Shown piece after piece: positions 7,232-36,145 of a stretch of 41,481 nucleotides of DNA. The notes beneath the pieces were generated by a model. The model saw nothing but the letters and a program-made list of their open reading frames with translations. It was not told where the DNA came from and did no database searches. This stretch comes from an uncultured archaeon (GTDB lineage Archaea; Aenigmatarchaeota; Aenigmatarchaeia; CG10238-14; CAZWBF01): positions 1 to 41,481 of the forward strand of contig CAZWBF010000003.1 of the NCBI GenBank assembly GCA_964632185.1, given 5' to 3'. The number at the start of each line of letters is the position of its first letter. Position 1 is the stretch's first letter. A program made the position numbers and the translations under genes.

Positions 7232-8302
7232 TCATAAAAATTTAGAAAGTTCATCTCTTATGATTTTATTATATTGAACCAAAGTTGTACAACATTTTTG
7301 ACAATATTCTGGGATATTTTTATTCATCAAATCTTTCCTTCTTTTTTCAAAATAATCTCCAAACCAAATTTCTTTTAAGCTCTTTTTCTTAACATTTTCT
7401 GTTGTTGATTGATCTAAAAATCCACAAGGACAAACCCATCCATCTACTCTAATTCCCATTCTCCACCAAGGTTCATAACAAGGTATAGAAAGAAAATTTC
7501 TTTTTTTATTTTTTATCATCTTTCTTATTTCTTTAATCATTCTTCCAGTATTTTCTATTAATTCTGTAGAAAAAAATTGTTGTAAATTTGTTTCTAAACC
7601 ATTTGCGAAAGTAAATGCTTTTTTTGCAAGTTTCTTAAATTCCTGTACCTCTTCCTTAGAAAGTTTGAGCATCCGCCCTTTCTCTGTATAGACTGTTAAA
7701 GGCTCTATAAAAAATGCTTGAACATTAAGTTTTTTTGCAAGTTTAATCATTTGAATTATTTTTCTAAAGTTCAATTTATTTAAAACAAAACCTATTTCAA
7801 GTTTAGGTTTTTCTGTTTTTAATTTTCTCTTATATAAAACAAAATTTTTTATATTCCTAATAACTTTTTCAAAACTTTCGCCTTGAGATAAATTATTTTG
7901 TATTTTTTTGTTTGGCCCATGAAAACTAATTTTTACATGATCCCAACCAATTTTTACTAAAACTTTAATCATATCTGGTGTAAACAATGTACCATTCGTG
8001 CAAATATATCCAAACATTCTATATTTTTTAACCAATTTCATTATTTCAATTATATCTTTTCTCATCAATGGTTCTCCTCCACCAATAATTCTTATTTCTT
8101 TAACACCAAGCTGATTTGCTTCCTTCAATATCCTTTTGTAATCTTCGAGCGACAACTCTTCACCATAATTAACTTTTTTTCCATATCTCCAACAAAATAA
8201 ACAATTTAAATTGCACCTTAGGGTAGGACTTATTTCTATGCTATAGGGCATTGCCTTTTCTCCTTTTGCCCATTTTAAAATCCTTTCTATTTTTTCTTCC
8301 AT
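7232..8302 (-). CDS. radical SAM enzyme with C-terminal twitch/SPASM-like domain (family 1, paralog 1 of 21)
   Basis: MEEKIERILKWAKGEK N-terminus; CNLNCLFC; IIGGGEP; CTNGTL; CYEPWWRMGIRVDGWVCPC...CQKCC. A GGGAGG Shine-Dalgarno-like motif lies ~10 nt upstream, inside the preceding gene. Confidence 0.9.
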   Translation of the reverse strand: MEEKIERILKWAKGEKAMPYSIEISPTLRCNLNCLFCWRYGKKVNYGEELSLEDYKRILKEANQLGVKEIRIIGGGEPLMRKDIIEIMKLVKKYRMFGYICTNGTLFTPDMIKVLVKIGWDHVKISFHGPNKKIQNNLSQGESFEKVIRNIKNFVLYKRKLKTEKPKLEIGFVLNKLNFRKIIQMIKLAKKLNVQAFFIEPLTVYTEKGRMLKLSKEEVQEFKKLAKKAFTFANGLETNLQQFFSTELIENTGRMIKEIRKMIKNKKRNFLSIPCYEPWWRMGIRVDGWVCPCGFLDQSTTENVKKKSLKEIWFGDYFEKRRKDLMNKNIPEYCQKCCTTLVQYNKIIRDELSKFL

Positions 8303-9363
8303 TTCTTTAATTCCTCCCTTATTCTTCTATTCTCATATACCTGCCCAGCATTACAAATTGAACAGTACTTAGAAAATCGTTTATTTAATATTTTCTTTCT
8401 TATATTTTCGAAAAAATCTCCAAACCAAATTTCTTTTAAGCTCTTTTTCTTAACATTTTCTGTTTTTTCATCGTACAAACAACAAGGTTGGGCAGTACCA
8501 TTTGTTTTTATTACTAAATGCCACCAAGGTTCATAACAAACTAAGGAAGCAAAATTTTTTGTTTCACCTTCTTTTTTTAATATATCTTTCATTTCATTTG
8601 ATTTCTCTATAAATTCTGGAGTTAAATGGTCCACATCAGTCCAGATTCCATATTTTTGAGCTAATTTTTTTGCAATTTTTGCATTTTTTACAAATTGGTA
8701 TTCTTCTTTTTTATTTAATTTCAATTTTTCTCCAAGTTCTGAATGAACTGTCAATGTATCAAAATGAACAATAGAACATTTTACTGCTTTCGCTAATTCT
8801 ATCATTTCCTTAACTTTGTTGTAATTTTTCTTATTAAGCACTACATTAAACTTTAAAATAGGATATTCACTTTTTGTTAATTCCTTAACATGATTAATCA
8901 TTTCTATTGTCTTCATTATTTTTTCAAAACTATTGTTTCTTCGTACAAAATCATTAGTTTCTTTATCTGGACCATCAATACTAATCGTAATTCTATCCCA
9001 GCCAATTTTTACAATCTCTTTTATATCTTCTAAAGTAAAAAGAGTTCCATTAGTTGTAATATTTCCAAAATTTTTACTTTTTTTAATAATCTCCATAATT
9101 TTCAATGTCAGTTCTTTTCTCATTAAAGGCTCTCCCCCACCCGTAATTTCGAACTCTCTAATACCAAATTTTATTGCTTCTTTTACAAGACTTATCAATC
9201 TTTCATCTGAGAGTTCATAACTAGAATCAATTTTGTTAAAAGCTCTTTGCCAACAATGGATACATTTTAGATTACATCTGTCGGTTGGATTAATATCTAA
9301 AGTAAATGGTGGTGCTTTCTTTCCTCTTGCCCATTTTAAAATCCTTTCTATTTTTTCTTCCAT
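8287..9363 (-). CDS. radical SAM enzyme, family 1 paralog 2
   Basis: The track start is 9378 (MIIKF). I prefer the ATG at 9363 (MEEKIERILKWARGKK), which matches paralog N-termini and leaves a TTTAAAT box ~20 nt upstream. CNLKCIHC; ITGGGEP; TTNGTL; CYEPWWHLVIKTNGTAQPCC...CSIC. Confidence 0.9.
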   Translation of the reverse strand: MEEKIERILKWARGKKAPPFTLDINPTDRCNLKCIHCWQRAFNKIDSSYELSDERLISLVKEAIKFGIREFEITGGGEPLMRKELTLKIMEIIKKSKNFGNITTNGTLFTLEDIKEIVKIGWDRITISIDGPDKETNDFVRRNNSFEKIMKTIEMINHVKELTKSEYPILKFNVVLNKKNYNKVKEMIELAKAVKCSIVHFDTLTVHSELGEKLKLNKKEEYQFVKNAKIAKKLAQKYGIWTDVDHLTPEFIEKSNEMKDILKKEGETKNFASLVCYEPWWHLVIKTNGTAQPCCLYDEKTENVKKKSLKEIWFGDFFENIRKKILNKRFSKYCSICNAGQVYENRRIREELKKWKKK

Positions 9364-9475: not shown

Positions 9476-10636
9476 ATGAAAGAAGAAGACGAAGTTGTGA
9501 AAAGAATTAAGAAATGGTTAAAAGGAAAAACTGCACCTCCATATATGTTAGAAATTTGGCCAACTTTTGAATGTAATTTAAACTGTGTATACTGTTGGAG
9601 ACGTGTTCACGATTTAAGAAAAATAAAACAGCGAGTGAGTGAAGAAAGATATTTAGAAATTTTAAACGAAGCGAGTAATATTGGTATTCGAAGAGTTGAG
9701 GTTGTAGGTGGTGGTGAACCAATGAAATTTCCAAGAATTATTGAAATAATTAAAAGAATAAAATTATCCGAAATGATTGGAACAATGACTACAAATGGTA
9801 CACTTTTTAATGAAAAGTCTGTAAGAACAATGGTGGAAATGAAGTGGGATTTAATCGCTATAAGTCTGGATGGACCTAATGAAGAAATTCACGATAAAAT
9901 AAGAGGGAGGGGCGCATTTAAAAAAGTAATTAACACACTGAGACTTTTTAAATATTGGAAAAGAAGATTAAAAACACATAAACCAGAAATAATTTTTGTT
10001 CCAGTTCTTTCAAAATTAAATTACGAATATATACCACAATTCTTTTATATAGCAAAAAAATTTGATGTAAAAGTAGTAGATTTTAAACCATTGATTTTAT
10101 ATGGGGGTGCATTTGAAAAATATAAAATAAAGGAAAATGAGTATGAAGATATTAGAAAAATCATATTAAAATCCTTAAGAATTGCAAGAAAATACAAAAT
10201 AGATACAAATCTTTCTGAATACTTAAACGATTTTTTTGTAATGAAAAGTCCTGAAGTTGTTCCAGTAATGAAAGAAAAGGCAAAAAAGAATTTCTTAAAA
10301 ATTCCATGTTTTATGCCATGGTATTTCTTAAAGATATATGCAGAAGAAGGTTGTGCAGGACCTTGTTTAGTTCCAGATAAGCTTCATATGATGAATATCA
10401 ATAAATATAGTCTTGAGGAGGTTTGGTATAGTGAGAAATTTGATAAATTGAGAAAAATGATGAGGAATAACATAGTCCCATCATTTTGTTCCCGATGCTG
10501 CGGCGGTTCTTTGTTTGATAATGAAAAAATTAGATTGAAACTCTCTAAAATTTTAAAAAAGAAGAAACAAAAATTTAAAAAGAAGAAACAAAAATCAAAA
10601 TCTAAAAACATAGATGTGGAATTAAATGAAAAATAA
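9476..10636 (+). CDS. radical SAM enzyme, family 1 paralog 3 (Lys-rich C-terminal tail)
   Basis: CNLNCVYC; VVGGGEP; TTNGTL; SLDGPNEEIHDKIRGRG; CFMPWYFLKIYAEEGCAGPC...CSRCC; tail KKKKQKFKKKKQKSKSK. Confidence 0.9.
   Translation: MKEEDEVVKRIKKWLKGKTAPPYMLEIWPTFECNLNCVYCWRRVHDLRKIKQRVSEERYLEILNEASNIGIRRVEVVGGGEPMKFPRIIEIIKRIKLSEMIGTMTTNGTLFNEKSVRTMVEMKWDLIAISLDGPNEEIHDKIRGRGAFKKVINTLRLFKYWKRRLKTHKPEIIFVPVLSKLNYEYIPQFFYIAKKFDVKVVDFKPLILYGGAFEKYKIKENEYEDIRKIILKSLRIARKYKIDTNLSEYLNDFFVMKSPEVVPVMKEKAKKNFLKIPCFMPWYFLKIYAEEGCAGPCLVPDKLHMMNINKYSLEEVWYSEKFDKLRKMMRNNIVPSFCSRCCGGSLFDNEKIRLKLSKILKKKKQKFKKKKQKSKSKNIDVELNEK
10556..10595. repeat. 21-nt in-frame tandem duplication in the Lys-rich tail of paralog 3
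   Basis: AAAAAGAAGAAACAAAAAT occurs at 10556..10574 and again at 10577..10595 (KKKQKFK / KKKQKSK). Confidence 0.8.
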
Positions 10637-11732
10637 AGAATATGACTCATATAGAGAGTTGATTAGAAGACTTATAAATTGGTCTAAAGGTATACCTCAA
10701 CCACCATTAAGAGTAGAGTTTTGGATATCTGGCAAATGTAATTTAAGATGTAGATTTTGCGGATCTTGGAAGGACAATAATCAAGATAAACTAAATACTA
10801 AAGATTTTATTAGAATAATAAACAAATCAAAAAAGATGGGAGTTAAAGAATTCTATATATCTGGTGGTGGTGAACCATTTTACAGAAAAGATGTTACTTT
10901 AAAAATTATGAAAAAAATTAAAAAAGTCAATGGTATAGGATTTATCATTACTAATGGTGCACTTCTAACTAAGAAAGATATAAATCAAATAATTAAGATA
11001 GAATGGGATATGCTAACAATAAGTTTAGATGGACCATCTCCAAAAGAACATGACTATTTACGTGGAGTAGATGGTACATTCGAGAAAGTGATAAACAACA
11101 TAGAATATATTTCATATTTAAAAGAAAGAAAAAAGAAATCTAAGCCATATGTATATATCAATAGTGTAATAAACAGAATAAATTATAAAAAAATACCAGA
11201 CCTTCTTGTTCTTTCTGCCAAACTTAATGTAAACGAGGTAATTTTTCAACCATTATTTGGGTCTGGAACTTTTTACAATAATTTAAGAATTAAAGAAAAA
11301 AATCTGACAGATTTTAAAAAAATAGTTCTTAAAGCAGAAAAATTAGCATCTAAATATAAAATAAAAACCAATATAAGTGAATATAAAAATCTAGACCTCT
11401 TAATCAATTCAAATTGTGCAGGGGAAATAATGTGCGAACATGTAAAGAAGGAAGAAGGATTCCTAGCTATACCTTGTTATGAACCTTGGTGGCATTTATT
11501 TATAAGCTTCAACGGAAATGCAGCACCGTGTGGCCCATGGGTTTCTAAATCATCAGAAAATGTTTTAGATTCTTCTATAGAGGAGATATGGTTTGGTGAT
11601 TTTTTTAATTCCTTTAGAGAAAAAATTAAAAGAAAAAATATGAACGGTTGTAATTGTTGTATGCCAATTTTATTTTTTAATAATAGATTAAGAGAATCTC
11701 TAAAGGCTGAATTGCAAAAACATAAAAAATAG
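10626..11732 (+). CDS. radical SAM enzyme, family 1 paralog 4
   Basis: CNLRCRFC; ISGGGEP; ITNGAL; SLDGPSPKEHDYLRG; CYEPWWHLFISFNGNAAPC...CNCC. Overlaps the upstream paralog by 11 nt. Confidence 0.9.
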   Translation: MKNKEYDSYRELIRRLINWSKGIPQPPLRVEFWISGKCNLRCRFCGSWKDNNQDKLNTKDFIRIINKSKKMGVKEFYISGGGEPFYRKDVTLKIMKKIKKVNGIGFIITNGALLTKKDINQIIKIEWDMLTISLDGPSPKEHDYLRGVDGTFEKVINNIEYISYLKERKKKSKPYVYINSVINRINYKKIPDLLVLSAKLNVNEVIFQPLFGSGTFYNNLRIKEKNLTDFKKIVLKAEKLASKYKIKTNISEYKNLDLLINSNCAGEIMCEHVKKEEGFLAIPCYEPWWHLFISFNGNAAPCGPWVSKSSENVLDSSIEEIWFGDFFNSFREKIKRKNMNGCNCCMPILFFNNRLRESLKAELQKHKK

Positions 11733-11749
11733 TTAATGGACTCGAAATA

Positions 11750-14037: not shown

Positions 14038-15444
14038 ATGAATTATTTGTTAGGGGGCTATATTATGGAACTTTTAACAGATGTTACACTCTTTAAACAT
14101 AGAATCTGGGCTTTTGAATATGCAGATAGAATGGAGAAATGGTTCAATGGTTTAGGTCAAGCTCCAATAAGAATAGATGTTGAACCGCATACAAGATGTA
14201 ATTTAAATTGTAGGATTTGTGCTAGAAGAGGATCTGTATATGAAAAGCTCAGTGAAAATGAAAGAAAAAGAATGGAACTTCCACCAAAAAAATGGATCCA
14301 AATAGCAGAAGAATCTGGAAAAATGGGGGTAAAAGCATGGAATATTTCTGGATTATGCGAACCTTTGGCAAGGCCAGATATATTAATTCCTTTAATGAAA
14401 ATGATAAAAGCTTATGATATGTTTGGTGAGTTAACAACAAATGGAACATTATGGAATGAAAAATATATTAAAGAGACTATAGAAATGGGTTGGGATAGTA
14501 TTTGTATTAGTATAGACTCGCATAAAGCAAAAATTCATGATTACTTAAGAGGAGTTAAAGGAACATTCAAAAAATCTACAAATACATTCAGAAAATTTAG
14601 TCAAATGAAGAAAAGATATAAAACTAATTTACCTGTACTTACATTGAATGTAGTCCTTAACAAACTCAATTATTTAAATTTACCAGAAATTATAAAAATG
14701 GCTGATAATTTAGGAGCTGATTCTATATTCGTTGAGCCAATTGTTGTTTTCAATGAAGAATGTAAAAAATTAAAAATGAATGAAAATGATATTGAAAAAT
14801 TTCAAGAAATTGTGGTAGAATCAAAAAAGATGGCAAATGAATATGGAATAGTATTAGATGTTACTGCCATTGCTCCAGGAAAGGCATTTTCTGGAGAAAA
14901 AAAGTTTGATGAGGATTTGATTAAAAAAACAGGCAATATAAAGGAAATATTAATTAATGAATCAAAAAAATTTTCTGATGAAATTCTTTCAATTCCATGT
15001 TATTATCCTTGGTTTTTTATGATGATAAGAGCTGATGGAAGTGTTACTCACTGTGGTGAATGGAAAGAAGGAGAAGACAACATCAGAAATAAAAGTTTAA
15101 AAGAAGTTTGGTTTGGTAAAACATTTTCAGAAATAAGAAAAAAATTTAGGAATGGTGAACTTTCGAGTTATTGTGAAAAATGCAGGCCAAACGTCATAGA
15201 AGATGCACGTAACGTTAGGAAAAGCATATTGGAATTTAGAGATTTGAACTTTTTAAGAAGAAAATATCTTGAACTTTTACAAGAAAATAAAGAGCTTAAA
15301 CAAGAATTACTATTATTTAAAAGAATGGGACTTAAAGATGAAAGATGCATACAATGCAAATATAAAAAAGAAATTGAAAAATTCAAAAATTCTCTAACAT
15401 ATAAAGTTTTTTCAATTTTTTGGAATATGAAATTTAAAAAATAA
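14038..15444 (+). CDS. radical SAM enzyme, family 1 paralog 7, with fused coiled-coil C-terminal tail
   Basis: CNLNCRIC; variant SGLCEP in place of GGGEP; TTNGTL; CYYPWFFMMIRADGSVTHC...CEKC; then an extra tail of ~70 aa (YLELLQENKELKQELL...EIEKFKNSLTYKV). An alternative start is the ATG at 14065, preceded by AGGGGG. Confidence 0.88.
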   Translation: MNYLLGGYIMELLTDVTLFKHRIWAFEYADRMEKWFNGLGQAPIRIDVEPHTRCNLNCRICARRGSVYEKLSENERKRMELPPKKWIQIAEESGKMGVKAWNISGLCEPLARPDILIPLMKMIKAYDMFGELTTNGTLWNEKYIKETIEMGWDSICISIDSHKAKIHDYLRGVKGTFKKSTNTFRKFSQMKKRYKTNLPVLTLNVVLNKLNYLNLPEIIKMADNLGADSIFVEPIVVFNEECKKLKMNENDIEKFQEIVVESKKMANEYGIVLDVTAIAPGKAFSGEKKFDEDLIKKTGNIKEILINESKKFSDEILSIPCYYPWFFMMIRADGSVTHCGEWKEGEDNIRNKSLKEVWFGKTFSEIRKKFRNGELSSYCEKCRPNVIEDARNVRKSILEFRDLNFLRRKYLELLQENKELKQELLLFKRMGLKDERCIQCKYKKEIEKFKNSLTYKVFSIFWNMKFKK

Positions 15445-15469
15445 TATTTAAAAAGGTAAATAATAAAAT

Positions 15470-16042
15470 ATGAAGAAAATGAAGAAAACAAACATCTTAA
15501 TAATTGCAGGCATTATTTCGCTCATCGTTGGCGTAGTATTTGATTTGTTTTTTCATATCCCTCTGAACCAAAGTAAAAATTTCTGCAATATGCTTTCAGG
15601 AGAAATTAGATTGGTTTGTAGGAATTCTTATGTAGACTGTTCTAAAATCTCAGATAAGATTGGTCTATGGAGTTGTATGGCGATACAACTTATAAATTAT
15701 GATGTTGATGCCGCACAAAAAGCCTGTAAACAACTTGATATTCCCAATGACCAAAAATTTTGTTTTGCTGATGCTCTCGATGAAATTGATATAAAAACAG
15801 CAGAAGAGCAATGTGAATTAATTGATGCTTCAGAGACTAAGATAATGTGCAAGGCAAATATCTATAAAAAAATAAATTTAACACGATCTTTAAATTTTTG
15901 TGAAGAATTTAATGAATCAGATAAAGTTTATCTATGCAAAGCAATTGTTACAACTCCTACTAATGCAAATGAAGCATATGAATGGTGTAAAAAAATAAAT
16001 GATGTAGTTATGAAAAATAAATGCATTAATTCGGTCAGATGA
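15470..16042 (+). CDS. membrane-anchored Cys-rich repeat protein (six CX10-11C units), function unknown
   Basis: N-terminal basic segment plus hydrophobic helix (NILIIAGIISLIVGVVFDLFF), then 12 Cys arranged as six pairs (C-x10-C once, C-x11-C five times) with a period of ~28-30 aa. Confidence 0.75.
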   Translation: MKKMKKTNILIIAGIISLIVGVVFDLFFHIPLNQSKNFCNMLSGEIRLVCRNSYVDCSKISDKIGLWSCMAIQLINYDVDAAQKACKQLDIPNDQKFCFADALDEIDIKTAEEQCELIDASETKIMCKANIYKKINLTRSLNFCEEFNESDKVYLCKAIVTTPTNANEAYEWCKKINDVVMKNKCINSVR

Positions 16043-16079: not shown

Positions 16080-17093
16080 ATGAACTTAATTCCTGATCTT
16101 CAAAGAGTTCAATTTCATTTAACAAACAAATGTAACTTAAGATGTCTATTTTGTCGTGCAAGAAACGTTAAAATTAGAAAAGAACTTTCTGATAAAAAAT
16201 GGCTTGACATTACTAGAGAATTATGTGAACTTAAACCAAAACAATTGACCATTTCTGGAGGAGGTGAACCCCTAATCCGAAAAAATCTAGCTACTAAAGT
16301 AATGGAAATGGTAAAAGCTTGTGATATAGAAGGTGCATTAATAACTAACGGAACTTTGGTCACATCAGATTTTGCTAAAAAGTTAGTTGAAATAGGCTGG
16401 AATGAATATAGAATTAGTTTACATTGTTCTTCTAGTAAAATGGATAAATATTTAAGAGGAAAGGAAAATGCCTTTTCTTTAACTTTAGACGGAATAAAAA
16501 AAATCAACTATTTTAAAAAGATGAGCAGAAGTGTTTTACCAAAAACTGAAATATGGATGGTATTGACTCGATATAATTATATGGAAATTGAAAAAATGAT
16601 AAAATTAGCCAAAAGATTTGGAATAGATGCCATTTCTTTAAAGATGGTTAATGAGCCAAGTAATGAAGAAAAAAAGTTTTCTTTATCGATAAAACAATTA
16701 AAATGGTTAAAAAATAGTTTTCCCAAATTTCTTGAATTAGCAAATAAATATGAGGTCCAACTGAAAACTTTATTTTCTTTTAATGATCTTTTTCCAAAAA
16801 AGAAAGTTAAAGTTAATAAAAAAAATAAGAAAAAAATTAAAAAAATTAAGTGTTTAATTCCGTTTAGAGAATTAGTCATTTTTGCAGATGGGAGAGTAAG
16901 TCCTTGTTGTAATTTTTTCTATTTTAAAAAAGATGAATTTCCAATCGAAAATATAGTTAATAAATCTTTAAAAGAAGTATGGTTTGGTGAAACATTTAAC
17001 AAATTAAGAAACTCTATATTAGAGGGAAATTTAATTAAAAATTGTAGAGAATGTCCAGTCGATTTAAAATATACAGAAAGGGATTATAGATGA
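16080..17093 (+). CDS. radical SAM enzyme, family 1 paralog 8 (short N-terminus, poly-Lys linker)
   Basis: CNLRCLFC begins at residue ~18, so the KW.kG helix is absent. ISGGGEP; ITNGTL; KKKVKVNKKNKKKIKKIK linker; CLIPFRELVIFADGRVSPCC...CREC. Confidence 0.88.
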   Translation: MNLIPDLQRVQFHLTNKCNLRCLFCRARNVKIRKELSDKKWLDITRELCELKPKQLTISGGGEPLIRKNLATKVMEMVKACDIEGALITNGTLVTSDFAKKLVEIGWNEYRISLHCSSSKMDKYLRGKENAFSLTLDGIKKINYFKKMSRSVLPKTEIWMVLTRYNYMEIEKMIKLAKRFGIDAISLKMVNEPSNEEKKFSLSIKQLKWLKNSFPKFLELANKYEVQLKTLFSFNDLFPKKKVKVNKKNKKKIKKIKCLIPFRELVIFADGRVSPCCNFFYFKKDEFPIENIVNKSLKEVWFGETFNKLRNSILEGNLIKNCRECPVDLKYTERDYR

Positions 17094-18202
17094 ATGATAC
17101 ACGCATAAATAGAATTAAAAAATTGTTAAATGGTAAGAAAGTAGGTCCATGGCACATGCAATTACAACCAACATCAAGGTGCAATTTAAATTGTAGATTT
17201 TGTTGGAGACAAACTTACTCACGGTATAAAGAGTTGAGTGACAAAAGGTGGAAAGAAATTACAAGAGAAGCTTGTCTTCTTAATCCCCATGAAATAACGA
17301 TTGTAGGTGGGGGAGAACCTTTATTCCGAAATAGATTATATGAAAAAATGAGTGAATTGATAAAGAAAAATGGAATAAAAGGTTGTACAATAACTAATGG
17401 AACTTTATATCATAAAAAGTTGGCAGAAAAAGTAGTTAAAATAGGGTGGGACACTATTGGAATAAGTATTCATGGTGCTAATGCATCAACTGACAATTTT
17501 CTTAGAGGACATCCTCACGCTTTTCAAATGACTATGAAATCTATTAAAAACATTAATTATTTCAAAAGGAAGTTTTCTTCCGATGTTCCTATTCTTCTAT
17601 TTCACAGCTTAATAACACGATTCAACATTAAAGAAATTCCTGATATGATAAAATTAGGAGGAAATTTAGGAATCAAAGTCATAGTCTTTAGAATGGTAAA
17701 CGATACTCCTAAAAAACCTAAATTCTTTATTAAAAAAAGTCAAATTAAACTTCTAGAAAAAAAATTAGAAGAAGCTAAAAAAATTTCTAGAGAATTGAGA
17801 ATTGATTTACAACTTCAATTTTCCTTAGAAGAAATTAAAAAAAGATTTGGGATTAAAATACAGCAAAAGAAAATTGATAAATCTGTAAAGAAAGGGAGGG
17901 AAAAAGGCATAAATATAGCATGTGCCAGACCTTTTTCAGAAATTGTAGTAATTCCAGATGGAACTACTAGCCCCTGCTGTCTTTTTTGTGAAGGAAAATA
18001 TAGTTCTACAGGTAAAAAAACTAATATTTCTAATTTTTTGGAAAATGCAAATGAAAAATCACTTGTTGATATATGGTTTGGAGAAAAAATGGAGAAATTT
18101 AGAGATTTGTCAAAAAATGGTAAATTGCCAGAATATTGCAAAATTGCATGCACTTTAGATTATAGATACTTAGAAGAAAGCGGAGAAATTTATAATAAAT
18201 AA
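17090..18202 (+). CDS. radical SAM enzyme, family 1 paralog 9
   Basis: CNLNCRFC; IVGGGEP; ITNGTL; CARPFSEIVVIPDGTTSPCCLFC...CKIAC. ATGA start/stop overlap with paralog 8. Confidence 0.9.
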   Translation: MNDTRINRIKKLLNGKKVGPWHMQLQPTSRCNLNCRFCWRQTYSRYKELSDKRWKEITREACLLNPHEITIVGGGEPLFRNRLYEKMSELIKKNGIKGCTITNGTLYHKKLAEKVVKIGWDTIGISIHGANASTDNFLRGHPHAFQMTMKSIKNINYFKRKFSSDVPILLFHSLITRFNIKEIPDMIKLGGNLGIKVIVFRMVNDTPKKPKFFIKKSQIKLLEKKLEEAKKISRELRIDLQLQFSLEEIKKRFGIKIQQKKIDKSVKKGREKGINIACARPFSEIVVIPDGTTSPCCLFCEGKYSSTGKKTNISNFLENANEKSLVDIWFGEKMEKFRDLSKNGKLPEYCKIACTLDYRYLEESGEIYNK

Positions 18203-18203
18203 T

Positions 18204-19463
18204 TCATTTTGACGACCATTCTTTAAGAAAACTTTCTATTTCTTTTATTTTGTTAATATCGTTTTTAATGTAAGAATCGACAAAATTTTTTAATTCTCTT
18301 CGTAAAACAATAGTATTACTTTGAAGGGCGCATGGATCACATCCTTTCATAATTATATTCTTTTTCACATTTTCCCTAACGCCATTCATAAAATCTCCAA
18401 ACCATATTTCTCTTAAAGATTCATTTTTTACATTTATTGGTTCCTCTCTTGTAACGAAAGATGCACATCTACCTACTCTGCCATCCGGGTTTATTAACAT
18501 ACTATACCATGGTTCATAGCATCTGTAATTAAAAAAAGCATATTTTTTGTATTTATTCTCTTCTTTTTTAAGACTAGTCTTTATCTTTTCATCGATTTTA
18601 TCTTTAAAAGTCGAATCTAATTGTTGTAAATATGACGTTAAAGAAATTACATCTACTCTCGAATTTTTAATTTTGGGGATTAATTCTTCTACATCACTTA
18701 ATAAAGATTTGTATTCTTGCGGTGTAGGTAAGATTTTCTCTACTATTTCTTTCGTTTCTTCGTATATATGAAGAGCGTGTAAAGCTATTTGGTTTACTTT
18801 TATGTTTGATAATTTCAAAATCAAATCCTTTATTTCATTCAGATTTTTTTTGTTAACAACTATATTTATTTGGATTATCGGATTTGATAATTTAGCTTTT
18901 TCTCTAAGTGAAGTTATTAGACTAATATTCTTTATCACATTTTCTGACAGGTCAAAACCGGTAATTTCTTGGTAAGTTTTGCCCAAGCCGTGTAAACTTG
19001 TTGTGATTTGAATTGCAGCATGCTCATGACCTGCTTTATCAACTTTTTCTTTACAGGTTTTTATCAACCCATTAATTATTTCCTCCGTAAGAAGAGTCCC
19101 GTTTGTAATTATTTCCAAATCTATAACTTTAAACCCATTTTTAATTTTCTCAAGAATGGGCAAAATTAATTCTCTTCTTAATAATGGTTCCCCACCACCT
19201 AAAATACACCATTGCCTAACTCCCATTTTCACACCTTCTTCAACTACCCTTAACCACTCTTCATCAGAAATTTCATCTTCAGGCCTATACCTTTGATTCT
19301 TTCTACCAACAAAATTTGGACAAAAAATACAATTTAGATTACATCTATCTGTCGGTGTTAATATCAATTTAAAAGGTGGTTGTGGGTCATTTAAAAAAAG
19401 ATATTTGAAGAGGCGTAACGACCTTTCTAATATTAGTGCATCCCTTGCACTTATCTCATTCAT
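18204..19463 (-). CDS. radical SAM enzyme, family 1 paralog 10 (longer, with insertions)
   Basis: CNLNCIFC; ILGGGEP; ITNGTL; CYEPWYSMLINPDGRVGRC...CDPC. Its stop codon lies 1 nt from the stop of the convergent paralog 9. Confidence 0.9.
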   Translation of the reverse strand: MNEISARDALILERSLRLFKYLFLNDPQPPFKLILTPTDRCNLNCIFCPNFVGRKNQRYRPEDEISDEEWLRVVEEGVKMGVRQWCILGGGEPLLRRELILPILEKIKNGFKVIDLEIITNGTLLTEEIINGLIKTCKEKVDKAGHEHAAIQITTSLHGLGKTYQEITGFDLSENVIKNISLITSLREKAKLSNPIIQINIVVNKKNLNEIKDLILKLSNIKVNQIALHALHIYEETKEIVEKILPTPQEYKSLLSDVEELIPKIKNSRVDVISLTSYLQQLDSTFKDKIDEKIKTSLKKEENKYKKYAFFNYRCYEPWYSMLINPDGRVGRCASFVTREEPINVKNESLREIWFGDFMNGVRENVKKNIIMKGCDPCALQSNTIVLRRELKNFVDSYIKNDINKIKEIESFLKEWSSK

Positions 19464-19513
19464 TTTTATCGCTCTTACATAAATTATTCAAAATTTTGAA
19501 ATTAAAAATATTC

Positions 19514-20575
19514 TTAAGTTAATTCATTTAATTTATTTATCATCTTACTTATAGGTAATTTATAAGGACATATTTTTTCACAATTTTCAAAATTTTTATT
19601 TTTAATTTTATCTTTAAAAACTGATAACTGCCATTTAGCAAAATTCAAATACTTGTATCTTTCAGCAATTATTAATAATTTTAAGAGGTCTGCTACAGAA
19701 ACATCTTGAACACATCCTTCACAATATCTGCACATTCTGCAAAATTTAAACCCTAAAAATTTCTCAAATTTTCTGGCTATTTTTCCCTTTTCTGATTTTT
19801 TCAGTTTCCATTTTTTACTTCCAATTTTGGTAACTTCTTCTATATGTTCTTTTTTCTTCATCCCAATTATAACTGCATCAACATATTTACATGATAAAAC
19901 AAACTTTAAAGCATTTTCAGGTGTCATAAACTCACTTCCTGGTACATGGACGTTTTCATCATATTTCGGATCAACAAGTATTCCTGTAGCAAATGGGGCA
20001 GCTGCTATAAATCCAAACTTGTATTTACTTTTTAGAGCAAATATTTTCTCAGCTTTTCTATGAACAGCATTATAAAGTGTGGAAATGACATTAAACCTAT
20101 TAGTTCTTATTGCTTTTTCCAATACTTCTATTTTATGGCTGAAGATTCCAATTAAATTAATTTTTCCATTTAATTTTGCTTCTTCCAGTATGTCTATAAC
20201 ACCATTTTTGACTATGTTCTCAAAATCTTCAACAGTTTCTATCATAACTTCATATACTACGGGTTTAACTTTTAGTTTTTTTATGCTATCTTTTATATCT
20301 CTTTCCATTTCTTTTGCAGTCTTAGATTCAGATCTAGTGATGACATAAAGTTTATTTCTTACATCTTTCATAGCTCTAGAGATAAATTCTTCATCATATT
20401 CTTTACCCATATCAATAAAATTGATACCATTTTTTACTGCAAATTTTATTGTTTCTTTTGCTTTTTTCAAAGTTATTGATGGGTCTTTATTACGATTAAA
20501 AACACCTGCCCCCAAACCTATTAAGGAAAGTTTAATTTTAGAATTTCCTAATTTCTTATAAAGCATTTTCATCAA
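19514..20575 (-). CDS. aldo/keto reductase-family oxidoreductase with C-terminal 4Fe-4S binding motif (COG1453-like architecture)
   Basis: The N-terminal ~270 aa are AKR-like (LSLIGLGAG, INFIDMGKEYDEEF). The C-terminus carries CRMCRYCEGC ... CEKICP, a ferredoxin-type CxxCxxC...CP pattern. Confidence 0.7.
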   Translation of the reverse strand: MMKMLYKKLGNSKIKLSLIGLGAGVFNRNKDPSITLKKAKETIKFAVKNGINFIDMGKEYDEEFISRAMKDVRNKLYVITRSESKTAKEMERDIKDSIKKLKVKPVVYEVMIETVEDFENIVKNGVIDILEEAKLNGKINLIGIFSHKIEVLEKAIRTNRFNVISTLYNAVHRKAEKIFALKSKYKFGFIAAAPFATGILVDPKYDENVHVPGSEFMTPENALKFVLSCKYVDAVIIGMKKKEHIEEVTKIGSKKWKLKKSEKGKIARKFEKFLGFKFCRMCRYCEGCVQDVSVADLLKLLIIAERYKYLNFAKWQLSVFKDKIKNKNFENCEKICPYKLPISKMINKLNELT

Positions 20576-26142: not shown

Positions 26143-26409
26143 CTAAATATATTTTCTTAAAAATTTCTTAAGCTTTCCTCCAACTTTAGTTTCTGCAATC
26201 CATCTTCCGACCCTATAACTTATTGAGTTATGGATATCTTCTAATTCTTTTTTGCATTCTTCTAATTCTTTTTCTCTCGCTGCTAATTGAAGTTTTAATA
26301 AATCACTTTCTTCTTTTACACTTTCAAGAAGTTGGTCGAGAAGCTTTAACATAGATCTACGGTTTTTATTTTTCTTAATTTTTGATATTAATTTTTCTAT
26401 TTCATCCAC
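26143..26409 (-). CDS. small coiled-coil protein, homologous to the C-terminal tail of paralog 7
   Basis: 88 aa, GTG start, overlapping the stop of paralog 16 by 8 nt in a different frame. Heptad-like Leu/Glu/Lys-rich sequence ending in ELEDIHNSISYRVGRW (compare EIEKFKNSLTYKVFSIFW in paralog 7). Confidence 0.6.
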   Translation of the reverse strand: MDEIEKLISKIKKNKNRRSMLKLLDQLLESVKEESDLLKLQLAAREKELEECKKELEDIHNSISYRVGRWIAETKVGGKLKKFLRKYI

Positions 26410-32964: not shown

Positions 32965-34041
32965 CTAAACACCATGAAAGAAAATTTTTAACAATTCAGT
33001 TATACTAAATCTTTGATAACAAAGCATCATACAAGGCATCTTACAATTTTTTATCAGATATCTTGTCCTTTTGAACTCTTCACTTTTCCATATCTTCGAA
33101 AGGTTTTTTCCAATTACATTTATATTTGGACCATAATTACAAATGCTAATATTTCCATAGGGGTCTATATTAAGATTAAAATAACCTGCCATGCATTTTC
33201 CCAAATTAAATTTTTCTTTCATTTCAAAGTATTTGGGGATTGCTTTAAGATAATAAACAGAATTGTATATAAAATTAGTATCTTTTCTTTTCAGTACAAC
33301 TAATTCATCTATAATTTTTTTCAACTCTTCTAAATCTTCCTTTTTTACCCAAAGAGGTGAATTATAATCAAATTTTTTAAAAGTGTTATCTAATACGAGA
33401 GATTGGAGAAACCATTGATCTATCCCTATTTTTTTGCCTAGCCAATAAATATCGACTAATTCTCTAAAATTATAAGACATGACAACTGTTGAAAAATCAA
33501 TTTTTAATTCATACCGATTTTTAAATTTTTTCAAAATTTTTGCTGCTTTTATTACTTGATTAAAGTTGCCTTTACCTCGTATGAAATCATGTGTTTCTTT
33601 TTTAGCTCCATCTAGAGATAGAGCGATTCTCTTTAATCCAGCTTCAAGCAATTTTTTACAAACTTTTTTGTTTAAAAGAGTTGCATTTGAAACAATGTTT
33701 GTATAAAAACCAAGAGAATTTGCATATTTAATTAATTCTAATGTATCATTCAACCTCAAAAGAGATTCTCCCCCCACGAAGGATACATATTTAGTATTTT
33801 TCCAGCTTTTTACTTCATTTAAGATTCTTTTCATTTCATTTACGCTTATCTCCTTTCCTTTCTTTGTTAATTTCCAAATATTGCACATTTTGCATTGTAA
33901 TGTACATCTATTTGTCATTTGAAAGTTGATCTCTTTTGGGTAAATTAATGGATAGTTAAGTAAATACGAAAAATAGTATTTGAAATAAGTTTTTGCATTT
34001 TCTAATTTTTTTCTTAAATCCATCCTCTCACTTCTAGCCAA
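32965..34041 (-). CDS. radical SAM enzyme, family 2 paralog (CxxxCxxCNIWK type) with C-terminal auxiliary Cys module
   Basis: NYPLIYPKEINFQMTNRCTLQCKMCNIWK; FVGGESL; VSNATL; LSLDGAKKETHDFIRGKG; CMAGYFNLNIDPYGNISIC...CKMPCMMLC. Confidence 0.9.
   Translation of the reverse strand: MARSERMDLRKKLENAKTYFKYYFSYLLNYPLIYPKEINFQMTNRCTLQCKMCNIWKLTKKGKEISVNEMKRILNEVKSWKNTKYVSFVGGESLLRLNDTLELIKYANSLGFYTNIVSNATLLNKKVCKKLLEAGLKRIALSLDGAKKETHDFIRGKGNFNQVIKAAKILKKFKNRYELKIDFSTVVMSYNFRELVDIYWLGKKIGIDQWFLQSLVLDNTFKKFDYNSPLWVKKEDLEELKKIIDELVVLKRKDTNFIYNSVYYLKAIPKYFEMKEKFNLGKCMAGYFNLNIDPYGNISICNYGPNINVIGKNLSKIWKSEEFKRTRYLIKNCKMPCMMLCYQRFSITELLKIFFHGV
33455..33628. repeat. identical-sequence tracts shared with 34525..34704 (copy A, inside family-2 paralog 32965..34041)
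   Basis: 33455..33495 equals 34525..34565 (41 nt) and 33523..33628 equals 34599..34704 (106 nt), checked base by base. The ~27-33 nt between the two tracts differ. Confidence 0.9.
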
Positions 34042-35117
34042 GCTTCTAAAAGTTCTTTAAAATTAAGTTTTTCATAACAAAGCATTAAACAAGGTTTTTT
34101 ACATTTTTTAATCAAAATTCTTGTCATCTTATATTTTTTACTTTTCCATATCTTTCTCAAACTCTCATTCTTAACATTTAAATTCGGTCCAAGACCACAA
34201 ATGTTAATATTTCCATATGGGTCTATGTTGATATAGCTATATCCAACGATGCATTTTCCAGTCTTAAATTTTTCTTTTTCTTTAAAATATTTGGGTAAAG
34301 ATAATAAATACCTTCTAGTATTTCTTATTTGTCCTGTAATTTTTTTCAATAAAACTAATTTTAAAACTATTTTTTCAAGTTCAGGAATATCTTCTTCTTT
34401 TATCCAGATATCGCTTTCATACGATTTTAAAATTTCTGATTTCCATGTAAATGTATTATCAAGAACAACTGCTTGGTAATTAATAAAATCGAAACCAATC
34501 TTTCTCATTAAATTAAAGATGTCAACTAATTCTCTAAAATTATAAGACATGACAACTGTTGAAAATTCCAATTCTACTTTTTTATTAAGTTTTCTTCGAA
34601 ATTTTTTCAAAATTTTTGCTGCTTTTATTACTTGATTAAAGTTGCCTTTACCTCGTATGAAATCATGTGTTTCTTTTTTAGCTCCATCTAGAGATAGAGC
34701 GATTTTCGAAACATTTGACTCTAAAAGTTTTTTACATAAAGATTTGTTAAGATAAACTCCATTTGTAATAAGATCTACTCTCATATTAGGTTTGTTAGAG
34801 GCATATTTTATAAGCTCTATTACATCTTTAGCTCTTACTAAGGTTTCTCCACCTGCAAAAGAGATATGATCAATACCCCATTCATAAATTTCATCAATAA
34901 GCTTCTTCAATTCTTCTAAAGAAAGTTCTTTATTTACTTCCACTTTCTTTTTCCAGACATTGCACATTATACACCTAAGTGGGCACCTATGTGTGATATC
35001 GAAATTTACTCTCCAAGGCTTACTTAAGGGATAGTTTAAATTATAGGATAACCAATTGAAGGAGTAATCTATTAAAAATTTAAAAATTCCTTCATAGATA
35101 CTCTTCAACTCCATCAC
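34014..35117 (-). CDS. radical SAM enzyme, family 2 paralog
   Basis: NYPLSKPWRVNFDITHRCPLRCIMCNVWK; FAGGETL; ITNGVY; LSLDGAKKETHDFIRGKG; CIVGYSYINIDPYGNINIC...CKKPCLMLC. Confidence 0.9.
   Translation of the reverse strand: MMELKSIYEGIFKFLIDYSFNWLSYNLNYPLSKPWRVNFDITHRCPLRCIMCNVWKKKVEVNKELSLEELKKLIDEIYEWGIDHISFAGGETLVRAKDVIELIKYASNKPNMRVDLITNGVYLNKSLCKKLLESNVSKIALSLDGAKKETHDFIRGKGNFNQVIKAAKILKKFRRKLNKKVELEFSTVVMSYNFRELVDIFNLMRKIGFDFINYQAVVLDNTFTWKSEILKSYESDIWIKEEDIPELEKIVLKLVLLKKITGQIRNTRRYLLSLPKYFKEKEKFKTGKCIVGYSYINIDPYGNINICGLGPNLNVKNESLRKIWKSKKYKMTRILIKKCKKPCLMLCYEKLNFKELLEAWLEVRGWI
34525..34704. repeat. identical-sequence tracts shared with 33455..33628 (copy B, inside family-2 paralog 34014..35117)
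   Basis: Same comparison as copy A. The tracts encode STVVMSYNFRELVDI and LSLDGAKKETHDFIRGKGNFNQVIKAAKILKKF in both proteins. Confidence 0.9.
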
Positions 35118-36145
35118 CTAATTCCAATTTTAATTCTTGGAAAACAAAGCATTAAACAGGGTTTTTTACACCTAAATATTTTTAGTCTTGTTTTTTCAAA
35201 TCTCAGACTATACCATATACTTTTTATCGAATACTCTCTCACATTTAAAGAAGGCCCTTTGCCACAAACATCCACTTCACCATTGGGTTTTATATACATA
35301 TAACTATATCCTGCCATACAGATCCCCTCTCTAAATTTTTCTTTTTTTTCAAAATATTCTGGCATCATTTTTAACATGAAAAGTGGAGTACCTATAATTC
35401 TCTTTTCCCTTTTTATTTTAATCAATTCTTCACATATTTTTCTTAATTTTGAAATGTTTTTCTTTTTGACCCAAAATTCATCGTCTTCATATCTTTTATT
35501 CTTTGTATAAGAAGTATCCAGATTATATGGGTTAAATGAAACCTCATATAATTCTAACTTTTCAACAAGCTCTACAATATCCAGTAATTCATCAATATTT
35601 TTATCATTAACCACAGTAGTTAACGATAATTTTAAATCAGAATTAAATTTTTCTTTTGCTCTTTTTATTTTTTTAATCGAATTCATCACTTTTTTATAAC
35701 ATCCTTTTCCCCTTATATAATCGTTTGTTTTTTCTGTTGCTCCATCAAGAGAAAATTGTAAGTAATCTAACCCAGATAAAACCAAATCTTCAGCAATAGT
35801 TTTATTCACAAGTAAACCATTAGATGTTACATGAGTTATTAAATTCCATTTTTTTGCTAATTTAATACATTCTATAAGATCATCTTTTCTTAGTAATGGT
35901 TCTCCACCTGCAAAACTAACATTTATACCTCCCCATCTTCCAATTTGATTTATAACATTTTTAAGCTCTTCAAGATTCAATTCATTCTCTTCCTTTAATC
36001 CATATTTCCATGTCTCACAAATTTTACATCTTAGATTACATTTATGTGTTAAGCCAAAGTTTATAAAAAGTGGTTTTGTAAAAGGAAAAAAAGTAAGATA
36101 GGAAATAATAAATTTCCATTTTTGAAATTTTGTGAGTTCTTCCAT
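35114..36145 (-). CDS. radical SAM enzyme, family 2 paralog
   Basis: FINFGLTHKCNLRCKICETWK; FAGGEPL; TSNGLL; SLDGATEKTNDYIRGKG; CMAGYSYMYIKPNGEVDVC...CKKPCLMLC. Confidence 0.9.
   Translation of the reverse strand: MEELTKFQKWKFIISYLTFFPFTKPLFINFGLTHKCNLRCKICETWKYGLKEENELNLEELKNVINQIGRWGGINVSFAGGEPLLRKDDLIECIKLAKKWNLITHVTSNGLLVNKTIAEDLVLSGLDYLQFSLDGATEKTNDYIRGKGCYKKVMNSIKKIKRAKEKFNSDLKLSLTTVVNDKNIDELLDIVELVEKLELYEVSFNPYNLDTSYTKNKRYEDDEFWVKKKNISKLRKICEELIKIKREKRIIGTPLFMLKMMPEYFEKKEKFREGICMAGYSYMYIKPNGEVDVCGKGPSLNVREYSIKSIWYSLRFEKTRLKIFRCKKPCLMLCFPRIKIGIR

Follow-up and report, generated by a model that had tools for sequence, protein, structure and literature searches.

A large radical SAM gene array in a putative glycan assembly locus of Candidatus Aenigmatarchaeota

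The ATP-binding cassette (ABC) transporter-dependent O-polysaccharide system of E. coli O9a is built from the glycosyltransferase family 4 (GT4) mannosyltransferases WbdA/B/C, a coiled-coil WbdD or WbbB protein and the Wzm/Wzt exporter. To our knowledge, O-polysaccharide systems cap or tailor their polymers with kinases, methyltransferases and 3-deoxy-D-manno-oct-2-ulosonic acid (Kdo) transferases, never with radical S-adenosylmethionine (SAM) enzymes and never with dozens of enzymes. Radical SAM chemistry on sugars is known from single enzymes of antibiotic pathways. In Azotobacter, the mannuronan C5-epimerases AlgE1-7 are paralogs that act on one finished polysaccharide, each leaving its own modification pattern. 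Here we analyze a 41,481-bp stretch of DNA with a guanine-plus-cytosine (GC) content of ca. 27% (contig CAZWBF010000003.1, referred to as the window) from an uncultured archaeon of the Candidatus Aenigmatarchaeota. It carries 25 radical SAM genes in two families, fam1 with 21 copies and fam2 with three complete copies and one truncated copy. From this wholly computational analysis, we give roughly an even chance to the reading that the array encodes a conserved, old battery of site-specific radical enzymes that would tailor a lipid-linked surface glycan before its Wzm/Wzt export in these DPANN archaea.

The frame of the locus is that of a familiar ABC-transporter-dependent glycan pathway. Like the O-polysaccharide systems of E. 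coli O9a and Klebsiella, the window encodes an extended Wzt protein, a Wzm-type permease, GT4 and GT2 glycosyltransferases and coiled-coil proteins, and relatives of the array contain multi-domain enzymes linked by coiled coils, as are WbdD and WbbB. Two publications cover the coiled-coil WbdD of E. coli O9a (PMC3482155) and the Klebsiella catalytic modules (PMC11231755). In contrast to these systems, the host is an archaeon without an outer membrane and neither an initiating enzyme nor a ligase is seen in the window. The AlgE epimerases are a conceptual analog to the array, but they are secreted, Ca-dependent and non-radical, number seven copies instead of 21 and show no relation to its enzymes in sequence or fold. 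A full-text literature search, with most subscription-journal papers outside its scope, returned no published description of such arrays or of the GT2-radical SAM fusions presented below. The first-pass annotation of the window had stated that no described pathway uses about two dozen radical SAM genes, which agrees with the searchable literature and with the NCBIfam results given below.

The array and its glycan-locus partners

According to the listing and translation of open reading frames (ORFs), the fam1 genes form a run of 21 consecutive ORFs of 337-468 amino acids between positions 7232 and 32964 and sit in blocks of two to six on the two strands. The run is broken by three ORFs only (15470-16042, 19514-20575 and 26143-26409), just as the first-pass annotation had described with a Cys-rich protein, an aldo-keto reductase-ferredoxin and an 88-residue ORF. 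The three complete fam2 ORFs follow at 32965-36145 and the truncated relative lies at 1-1015. The combined length of the 25 radical SAM ORFs is 27.8 kb, or 67% of the window, matching the earlier count of 21 plus four genes over about two-thirds of it. All 25 match the Pfam Radical_SAM family, and a per-gene cysteine map shows that all 25 keep the CX3CX2C motif of the SAM-cleaving [4Fe-4S] cluster. No ORF is interrupted, in keeping with the earlier statement that the cluster cysteines are retained throughout and that no copy is visibly a pseudogene. Gaps within the array measure at most 98 bp and thus leave no room for a peptide substrate gene. A tRNA search detected no tRNA gene in the window.

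Upstream of the radical SAM genes, on the minus strand, are genes for an ABC-2 permease, a Wzt-type ATPase, a 332-residue coiled-coil protein and a GT2 glycosyltransferase, the last base of which (36145) is the first base of fam2 gene 1. The other end of the array is occupied by two GT4 glycosyltransferases, an 84-residue protein, a GH113-like hydrolase, a PMT_2-like membrane protein and a DUF362 protein. The nucleotide-binding domain of the Wzt-type ATPase (residues 19-251) matches the Aquifex Wzt O-antigen transporter (8dku) with an E-value of 6.8e-61. Because a Wzt-type ATPase and an ABC-2 permease are encoded together with one GT2 and two GT4 enzymes, the array is predicted to be embedded in an ABC-transporter-dependent (Wzm/Wzt) glycan assembly locus. 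In O-antigen systems, Wzt has at its C-terminal position a domain that binds carbohydrate and recognizes the cap at the chain end. The extension found at this position in the window ATPase (residues ca. 255-459) gives only a faint Filamin-like (beta-sandwich) match. The hydrolase ORF at 3657-4646 scores 18 bits by itself against the glycoside hydrolase family 113 (GH113) cutoff of 27. A profile combining this ORF, its orthologs and a true GH113 protein from the bacterial locus L009 matches GH113 beta-mannanase structures over its full length (3.6e-18), and the candidate catalytic residues E144/E151 and E264 are invariant in the GH113-like alignment.

Related arrays, denoted here by locus numbers, contain a similar set of partners. 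The archaeal loci L001, L004 and L012 have the partner families of the window plus carbamoyltransferase, GDSL and phosphodiesterase-like tailoring genes. PMT/PMT_2, GT4 and GH113 genes are present in the bacterial arrays L009, L040 and L041, B12-type radical SAM and SAM methyltransferase genes also occur in bacterial arrays, and PMT/PMT_2 proteins of similar size are found in related arrays of both domains. A phmmer comparison of the non-radical SAM proteins of the window with the bacterial loci gave no match, and the partner link to bacteria exists at the level of Pfam families only (GH113, PMT/PMT_2, GT4). Within the archaea, the L012 ortholog of the window aldo-keto reductase is annotated as Aldo_ket_red plus Fer4_17, and the L001 ortholog of the 190-residue Cys-rich protein matches all 12 cysteines. 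The latter protein, with its cysteines regularly spaced, has no family match and was undetected in the bacterial arrays.

The strongest evidence for physical cooperation between these radical SAM enzymes and a glycosyltransferase comes from fusions of GT2, coiled coil and radical SAM domains. In L040, a single ORF (cluster P0121, seven contigs) joins a Zn ribbon, a GT2 domain, a coiled coil of ca. 230 residues and a fam2-like radical SAM domain. When this ORF was searched against a database, at least 20 more clusters, 900-1,500 amino acids in length, were found to combine GT2 and Radical_SAM, with or without SPASM; one GT2-radical SAM fusion stems from an Omnitrophota metagenome-assembled genome (MAG). 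When 12 fusions were scored with hidden Markov models, the terminal radical SAM domain was assigned to fam2 (130-273 bits), with the exception of P0226, whose lone domain scores 41 bits against fam2 and which is devoid of the coiled-coil motif described next. In double fusions, the first radical SAM domain falls between fam1 and fam2, with a CxxC tail like that of fam1. The window gene order of coiled-coil protein, GT2 and fam2 presents the same modules as the fusion, but in the fusion GT2 comes before the coiled coil.

The coiled coil ends in IYxSTG[FY]RYxL[KR]PLW in eight of the 12 scored fusions, most clearly in seven and in degenerate form in P0139. Related motifs close the 88-residue ORF of the window (SISYRVGRWI), the tail of fam1 paralog 7 (SLTYKVFSIFW, window 15250-15444) and a 170-residue coiled coil fused to a fam1 enzyme at 4785-6500 of L034 (SISYRMGSSLG). 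The motif core, [ST]-x-[ST]-[YF]-[RK] followed by hydrophobic residues, stands directly after the coiled coil and reads IYxSTGFRYLLRPLW in bacterial fusions (P0125-P0140). It may be a membrane- or partner-docking element.

Some further features of the neighborhoods are worth recording. Genes for a carbamoyltransferase, a GDSL/SGNH-like protein and a second GH113-like protein, along with two small membrane ORFs, break up the arrays of L001 (3405-6590) and L012 (13746-14810); these genes are missing from the window array, so the non-radical SAM tailoring content varies between genomes. Past its GT4 and GH113-like genes, L001 encodes a Zn-ribbon radical SAM protein, a B12-binding radical SAM protein, a UbiE-type methyltransferase and a UbiA prenyltransferase (16413-20874), and the corresponding window position holds the DUF362 gene and the truncated fam2-like gene. 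A weakly Phosphodiest-like gene, as at the end of the window, is also present at the edge of L001. The gene for the 84-residue protein lies between the GT4 pair and the first radical SAM gene on the strand opposite to both, and its product is perhaps a small scaffold or flippase-like subunit. A 508-residue protein without a Pfam match is encoded midway in the bacterial radical SAM array of L009 (12273-13799).

Fold and candidate substrates of fam1 and fam2

All 21 fam1 proteins match both Pfam Radical_SAM and SPASM, with a best Radical_SAM E-value of 1.6e-29 and a score for member 1 of 96.8 bits against the PF04055 cutoff of 29.5. The four fam2 proteins, including the truncated one, score 58-97 bits against the same cutoff and give weaker SPASM matches. 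Invariant features of the 21-copy fam1 alignment are CNLxCxxC, the Glu of GGGEP, the Asn of TNGTL and three C-terminal cysteines. These twitch cysteines are C275, C293 and C334; C337 occurs in no fewer than 90% of copies. The motifs that the first-pass annotation had ascribed to all fam1 copies were thus right in the case of CNLxCxxC and too general for GGGEP, the final CxxC, HDxxRG and the N-terminal helix, none of which is universal. GGGEP is degenerate in five copies (SGLCEP, EGINEP, GGWEP, GSGEP and GGGEG), all of which retain the Glu. The fam2 tail is distinct from that of fam1 and has the pattern C-x17-C-x31-CX3CX3C.

The fam1 barrel is preceded by ca. 25 residues forming one helix. In the AlphaFold model of the protein encoded at 7232-8302 (mean predicted local distance difference test score, pLDDT, 94.9; predicted template modeling score, pTM, 0.93), a helix at residues 2-12 is followed by a barrel of alternating strands and helices and a C-terminal hairpin-plus-helices domain. 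A profile of 76 family members matches SkfB, PqqE, SuiB, MoaA, BtrN, BlsE and DesII in the PDB. Foldseek likewise connects the model to solved radical SAM enzymes with no specific functional neighbor, giving template modeling (TM) scores of 0.46-0.69 to many of them at identities of at most 21%, none of which stands out; the structural neighbors include SuiB, SkfB, BlsE, PqqE, DesII, CteB and anSME. For a profile of the C-terminal domain, the BtrN twitch domain is the sole strong PDB match (3.3e-9), with all four cysteines in register, and SuiB comes second (6.8e-4). The second-cluster motif of a full SPASM domain, CX2CX5CX3C, was not found in fam1, which has CxxC or, in some copies, CxxCC, and the Pfam SPASM match runs through the first half of the SPASM domain. 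Because the four cysteines align with those of BtrN and the second SPASM motif is absent, fam1 is classified as a BtrN-type twitch enzyme, predicted to bind one auxiliary cluster entirely through cysteines and to lack the second cluster of SPASM enzymes. The single twitch or partial-SPASM cluster proposed in the first-pass annotation is upheld by this result.

BtrN, the 2-deoxy-scyllo-inosamine dehydrogenase of butirosin biosynthesis, shares with fam1 the CX3CX2C motif, a domain for one C-terminal auxiliary cluster and the lack of a peptide-recognition domain, and its carbohydrate-type substrate fits the glycan context of the array. The similarity is limited to the twitch domain and the generic core. 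Fam1 differs from BtrN in an additional helix at the N-terminus and a longer bridging region, and whereas fam1 is a 21-member array, BtrN is encoded singly, within an aminoglycoside cluster. The best mutual structural coverage is found between fam1 and BlsE (TMq 0.69, TMt 0.74), with DesII another of the top matches. Both act on sugar moieties, are 14-16% identical to fam1 and are encoded by single genes in antibiotic clusters.

The strongest overall sequence and structure matches are to SPASM peptide enzymes (SkfB, 2.3e-25 and TM 0.64; SuiB, 9e-24 and TM 0.64; anSME, TM 0.61; PqqE and CteB), which resemble fam1 in their layout of a barrel plus a C-terminal Fe-S domain. The paralogs could accordingly be maturases of the anSME type or of peptides made by the ribosome and modified after translation (RiPPs), each introducing a thioether, epimerized residue, formylglycine or cross-link at one site of a secreted or surface protein such as the anchored Cys-rich protein of the array or an S-layer protein or adhesin encoded elsewhere. 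One enzyme per site would account for many distinct conserved paralogs, and a 190-residue protein with 12 cysteines is indeed conserved in this and related arrays. We nevertheless consider such a role unlikely. Identity to the SPASM maturases does not exceed 21%, fam1 lacks CX2CX5CX3C and its twitch domain is nearer to that of BtrN, a carbohydrate dehydrogenase, than to that of SuiB. Pfam searches revealed no RiPP recognition element (RRE) or PqqD-like domain in fam1 or the neighboring genes, and no short precursor gene, peptidase or RiPP-type exporter accompanies the closely spaced array. In a small-ORF search of the window, the only small conserved ORFs were those of 84 and 88 residues, neither of which resembles a RiPP precursor. 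The Cys-rich protein is membrane-anchored at its N-terminus and undetected in bacterial arrays, and the radical SAM fusions are to GT2, not to peptide-binding domains.

No NCBIfam model reaches its cutoff for any fam1 or fam2 copy, and several named identities were rejected on their scores. For fam1 member 1, these are the tungsten-cofactor maturases (W_rSAM_matur; TIGR02668/TIGR04317 are the top NCBIfam matches) with 121 bits against a cutoff of 380, and archaeal MoaA with 115 against 325 (best E-value among the 21 copies 4.1e-38). The RiPP maturase models PqqE (87 against 381) and WgkB (102 against 650) also stay far short of their cutoffs. Viperin (pVip) scores 57-84 bits against 180 in NCBIfam and 50-93 bits in PADLOC, where the match covers the core only; Tes/GDGT-MAS scores 45-70 bits against 450, and BlsE 68-69 bits (fam2 copies) against 400. 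fam1 and fam2 are new subfamilies of the well-known radical SAM superfamily.

The best PDB match of fam2 is GDGT-MAS (7tol, 5.4e-20), restricted to profile positions 31-165. Published work on Tes, Gms and Grs has established radical SAM remodeling of archaeal lipids as a precedent for modification of a polyprenyl or dolichyl carrier, or of host-derived ether or tetraether lipids, by the array. The B12-binding and second radical SAM proteins, UbiA prenyltransferase and methyltransferase flanking the L001 array are in line with such a role, and coiled-coil tethering near the membrane would suit lipid substrates. However, the GDGT-MAS match is confined to the generic SAM-binding core, the NCBIfam Tes scores fall far below the cutoff, orthogroups are also present in high-GC bacteria, and the partners that stay constant comprise glycosyltransferases, an ABC exporter of polysaccharide and a glycoside hydrolase instead of lipid synthases. 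Lipid modification is, in our judgment, very unlikely.

The core similarity to viperin, together with MoaA (GTP) and BlsE and DesII (nucleoside and nucleoside diphosphate (NDP)-sugar substrates) as neighbors, raises the prospect that the array makes soluble modified nucleotides or nucleotide-sugars, either viperin-like chain terminators of a defense arsenal or rare NDP-sugars of a precursor factory. This too has a very low probability. The viperin scores are far under the NCBIfam cutoff, and we know of no viperin with a twitch cluster. The window contains no kinase, nucleotidyltransferase or other defense genes, 21 NDP-sugars would need far more than three to four glycosyltransferases, and there is no viral or plasmid carriage.

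Orthology, selection and distribution

Pairwise identity among the 21 fam1 copies ranges from 22% to 46% with a mean of 33%, and DNA repeats in the array consist only of motif-coding segments that are 60-75% identical and spaced ca. 1.06-1.1 kb apart. Two near-identical DNA stretches were observed, one between 7352-7404 and 8413-8465 (53 nt at 96%, 34 nt identical) and one between 9113-9150 and 12594-12631 (38 nt at 95%), in paralogs that are otherwise 37-46% identical in protein. They may be micro gene-conversion tracts or reflect a strong constraint on the codons of the KSLKEIWFG and GGGEPLMRK motifs.

A gene-by-gene comparison is provided by the Candidatus Aenigmatarchaeota MAG GCA_038997405.1, in which L001 and L012 are parts of one contig (46 kb with a 3.8-kb gap) carrying at least 19 fam1 and three fam2 genes in the order of the window. 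GT2, aldo-keto reductase, the 88/91-residue ORF, the Cys-rich protein and the GT4 pair are shared as well. Colinear reciprocal-best orthologs at 48-78% identity exist in this MAG for 15 of the 21 fam1 genes and all three complete fam2 genes, with second-best matches of at most 43% (fam1) and 50% (fam2). Ortholog pairs show a nonsynonymous divergence (dN) of 0.16-0.47 and a saturated synonymous divergence (dS; at least 1.7 or undefined), and the dN/dS ratio of at most 0.26 is an upper bound only, synonymous sites being saturated. These sequence comparisons show most copies to be orthogroups of their own, kept under purifying selection. Six fam1 copies (9476-11732, 14038-15444 and 16080-19463) have no clear 1:1 ortholog in GCA_038997405.1 or the other sampled loci and may form a variable part of the array around a conserved core or have counterparts in unsampled sequence.

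The head-to-tail paralogs at intervals of ca. 1.06-1.1 kb suggest an origin by tandem duplication, and together with the six copies lacking clear orthologs they could be taken as signs of a decaying or neutral amplification, or of an assembly artefact, in which most copies would have no specific function. This explanation is contradicted by the orthology and selection results and we regard it as almost certainly wrong. The ORFs are intact, cluster ligands are kept, paralogs are at most 46% identical, orthologs are 1:1 and colinear with a low dN/dS, and the gene order is repeated in independent assemblies. The first-pass annotation had likewise viewed the copies as maintained and diverged and not as a recent amplification.

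Orthogroups extend across many loci. When 188 unique fam1 sequences from outside the window were compared with its paralogs, 142 could be assigned to one of them with a margin of at least 50 bits, and each locus contributes one member per orthogroup with a single exception (six members in five loci). The four best-sampled orthogroups comprise 21-31 sequences and loci each, the sampling being biased to the four copies beside the GT4 genes. Seventeen alignment columns are fixed within each of these four and differ between them. As placed by the secondary structure of the model and not in 3D, positions 23, 25, 28, 39, 73, 101, 124, 128, 171 and 203 are located in or just after predicted barrel strands, positions 283, 294, 295, 338, 340 and 341 beside the twitch cysteines and position 243 in the bridging region. 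This pattern would be expected of a common mechanism applied to different substrates or sites, and the differing residues predicted to line the active site suggest a separate target position or residue for every enzyme.

The array recurs in dozens of archaeal and bacterial metagenome contigs. The database proteins closest to the ORF at 7232-8302, with 72-75% identity, belong to MAGs of Candidatus Aenigmatarchaeota and to metagenome contigs that reach 690 kb, and proteins of the window recur at 99-100% identity on short contigs from JGI. A scan with a single protein gave only four loci. In a metagenome scan with one orthogroup, 39 loci were identified, and nearly every locus of at least 10 kb carries 4-11 fam1 genes. 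The GC content of the loci is mostly 27-40%, and five loci have 57-61% (L009, L010, L011, L040 and L041), of which L009-L011 were reached through protein homologs of the window. Close homologs of L009 and L011 proteins are named as Thermodesulfobacteriota and CSSED10-310 bacteria. The bacterial L009 (57% GC) contains at least 10 fam1 and three fam2 genes in 21 kb. Nine to ten of its genes are reciprocal best matches of particular window paralogs, mostly at 39-46% identity and in one case at 35%, with margins over the next paralog of 24-118 bits that are below 30 bits for two. The adjacency of window paralogs 1 and 2 is kept in L009 and L011. Given these bacterial reciprocal-best orthologs and the single member per orthogroup per locus, the diversification of the orthogroups appears to predate the spread between archaea and bacteria; the neighbor-joining tree is without bootstrap support. 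One gene order is found across independent assemblies from NCBI, JGI, ENA and Logan. Searches of plasmids gave no match at 1e-20, and among viral contigs no relative was detected beyond one 22% partial match. The features of the window are listed in Table 1.

Table 1. Genes and ORFs of the 41,481-bp window, with strand and supporting evidence.
Feature	Position	Strand	Evidence and remarks
fam2-like radical SAM, truncated	1..1015	-	N-terminus at 1015, C-terminus beyond window edge; Pfam Radical_SAM 1.3e-15, weak SPASM; 29% identity to fam2
DUF362 protein	1077..2018	-	Pfam PF04015, 2.7e-43
PMT_2-like polytopic membrane protein, 513 aa, candidate GT-C type glycosyltransferase	2106..3647	-	Weak PMT_2 match, 3.9e-4, under Pfam cutoff
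GH113-like (clan GH-A) glycoside hydrolase, membrane-anchored	3657..4646	-	Weak Pfam GH113; profile match; NE and GE(I)G Glu motifs
GT4 glycosyltransferase	4643..5785	-	Pfam Glyco_transf_4 and Glyco_trans_1_4; array-adjacent orthologs in L001, L004, L006
GT4 glycosyltransferase	5782..6990	-	Pfam; conserved array neighbor
84-aa conserved protein, two hydrophobic, probably transmembrane, segments	6977..7231	+	Orthologs at same position in L001, L004
fam1 paralog 1, 356 aa	7232..8302	-	Orthologs of 72-75% identity beside GT4 pair in other MAGs; AlphaFold2 pLDDT 94.9
fam1 paralog 2, 363 aa	8287..9378	-	Orthogroup includes bacterial L009, L011 members
fam1 paralog 3, 386 aa	9476..10636	+	No 1:1 ortholog found in GCA_038997405.1
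fam1 paralog 4, 368 aa	10626..11732	+	No 1:1 ortholog found in GCA_038997405.1
fam1 paralog 5, 366 aa	11750..12850	-	Pfam, alignment, ortholog comparison
fam1 paralog 6, 370 aa	12843..13955	-	Pfam, alignment, ortholog comparison
fam1 paralog 7, 468 aa, C-terminal coiled-coil tail ending SLTYKVFSIFW	14038..15444	+	Pfam, alignment
Cys-rich protein, 190 aa, 12 Cys, N-terminal hydrophobic anchor	15470..16042	+	Sequence; orthologs in L001, L006
fam1 paralog 8, 337 aa, without N-terminal helix	16080..17093	+	Pfam, alignment
fam1 paralog 9, 370 aa, last Cys pair CxxxC	17090..18202	+	Pfam, alignment
fam1 paralog 10, 419 aa, most divergent copy, insertion after TNGTL	18204..19463	-	Pfam, alignment
Aldo-keto reductase, 353 aa, C-terminal Cys-rich (Fe-S-type) tail	19514..20575	-	Pfam Aldo_ket_red 8.2e-24
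fam1 paralog 11, 370 aa	20633..21745	+	Pfam, alignment, ortholog comparison
fam1 paralog 12, 363 aa	21732..22823	+	Pfam, alignment, ortholog comparison
fam1 paralog 13, 373 aa	22786..23907	+	Pfam, alignment, ortholog comparison
fam1 paralog 14, 359 aa	23917..24996	-	Pfam, alignment, ortholog comparison
fam1 paralog 15, 383 aa	24984..26135	-	Pfam, alignment, ortholog comparison
Coiled-coil protein, 88 aa, ending SISYRVGRWI	26143..26409	-	Sequence; 91-aa ortholog at same place in L012
fam1 paralog 16, 386 aa	26402..27562	-	Pfam, alignment, ortholog comparison
fam1 paralog 17, 396 aa	27549..28739	-	Pfam, alignment, ortholog comparison
fam1 paralog 18, 369 aa	28739..29848	-	Pfam, alignment, ortholog comparison
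fam1 paralog 19, 355 aa	29829..30896	-	Pfam, alignment, ortholog comparison
fam1 paralog 20, 355 aa	30896..31963	-	Pfam, alignment, ortholog comparison
fam1 paralog 21, 339 aa	31945..32964	-	Pfam, alignment, ortholog comparison
fam2 gene 3, 358 aa, tail C-x17-C-x31-CX3CX3C	32965..34041	-	Pfam, alignment, ortholog comparison
fam2 gene 2, 367 aa	34014..35117	-	Pfam, alignment, ortholog comparison
fam2 gene 1, 343 aa	35114..36145	-	Pfam; reciprocal-best ortholog in bacterial L009
GT2 glycosyltransferase	36145..37035	-	Pfam Glycos_transf_2 7.1e-16; orthologs in L012, L008
Lys/Glu-rich repetitive protein, 332 aa, probably coiled coil	37032..38030	-	Coiled-coil-type Pfam/PADLOC matches only; weak ortholog in L012
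Wzt/TagH-type ABC ATPase, C-terminal extension of ca. 200 aa	38027..39406	-	Wzt structure match; NCBIfam TagH/Wzt-like; Pfam ABC_tran
ABC-2 (Wzm-type) permease	39406..40197	-	Pfam ABC2_membrane 7.4e-8
Partial ORF, phosphodiesterase/alkaline-phosphatase-superfamily-like, N-terminal hydrophobic segment	40251..41481	+	Weak Pfam Phosphodiest 3.8e-5; runs off window end

Proposed mechanism and significance

If the array tailors a surface glycan, its enzymes would reside on the cytoplasmic side of the membrane, where coiled-coil proteins and the short motif after the coiled coil would keep them close to the GT2/GT4 machinery. The 5'-deoxyadenosyl radical would take one particular hydrogen from a sugar of the polyprenyl-linked glycan; nucleotide-sugar precursors of the glycan are a less likely substrate. 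The glycan is perhaps mannose-rich, because the partners include GT4, PMT-like and GH113-like proteins. The twitch cluster would serve as an electron conduit, as in BtrN, and possible outcomes are keto-sugars formed by oxidation, epimerization, deoxygenation or C-C and C-O cross-links, with the Fe-S aldo-keto reductase as a candidate for the re-reduction of keto intermediates. The modified polymer would be exported by Wzm/Wzt, and the GT-C-like and GH113-like proteins could process it further once it is outside.

Several points weigh against glycan tailoring. All carriers of the array are MAGs or metagenome contigs, and the sequence and structure neighbors with the lowest E-values are the peptide-modifying SkfB, PqqE and SuiB, not sugar enzymes. 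Only three to four glycosyltransferases stand beside 25 radical SAM enzymes, and we know of no glycan that requires so many C-H functionalizations. A Pfam scan found no initiating polyprenyl-phosphate glycosyl-1-phosphate transferase in the window, and the GH113-like and PMT_2 matches of the window proteins are weak taken alone. The fusions tie GT2 to fam2-type domains, and the link between fam1 and GT2 consists of adjacency, the shared coiled-coil motif and the intermediate domain in double fusions.

A more far-reaching version of the glycan reading is tentative and rather doubtful in its full form. It proposes a hitherto unrecognized, cross-domain line of glycan editing in which more than 20 distinct twitch enzymes, tethered through coiled coils to GT2/GT4-Wzm/Wzt machinery, would each perform one different site-specific C-H functionalization of a lipid-linked polysaccharide, be it epimerization, oxidation, deoxygenation or cross-linking, and together yield a surface polymer with a chemistry unlike that of characterized glycans.

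The 1:1 orthogroups shared by archaea and bacteria indicate inter-domain transfer of much of the system and provide a ready comparative set for work on specificity, while the GT2-coiled coil-radical SAM fusion is a single polypeptide open to direct expression and assay. If glycan tailoring is correct, the coupling of at least 20 radical SAM enzymes to polysaccharide assembly and export would represent a new way of building surface polymers, and the array would be a large untapped source of C-H-functionalizing enzymes. DPANN archaea, including the Aenigmatarchaeota, are generally regarded as host-dependent organisms with small genomes. The 28-kb radical SAM block would be a large cell-surface investment and a concrete target for the study of host recognition, and in these archaea the edited polymer could mediate attachment to the host.

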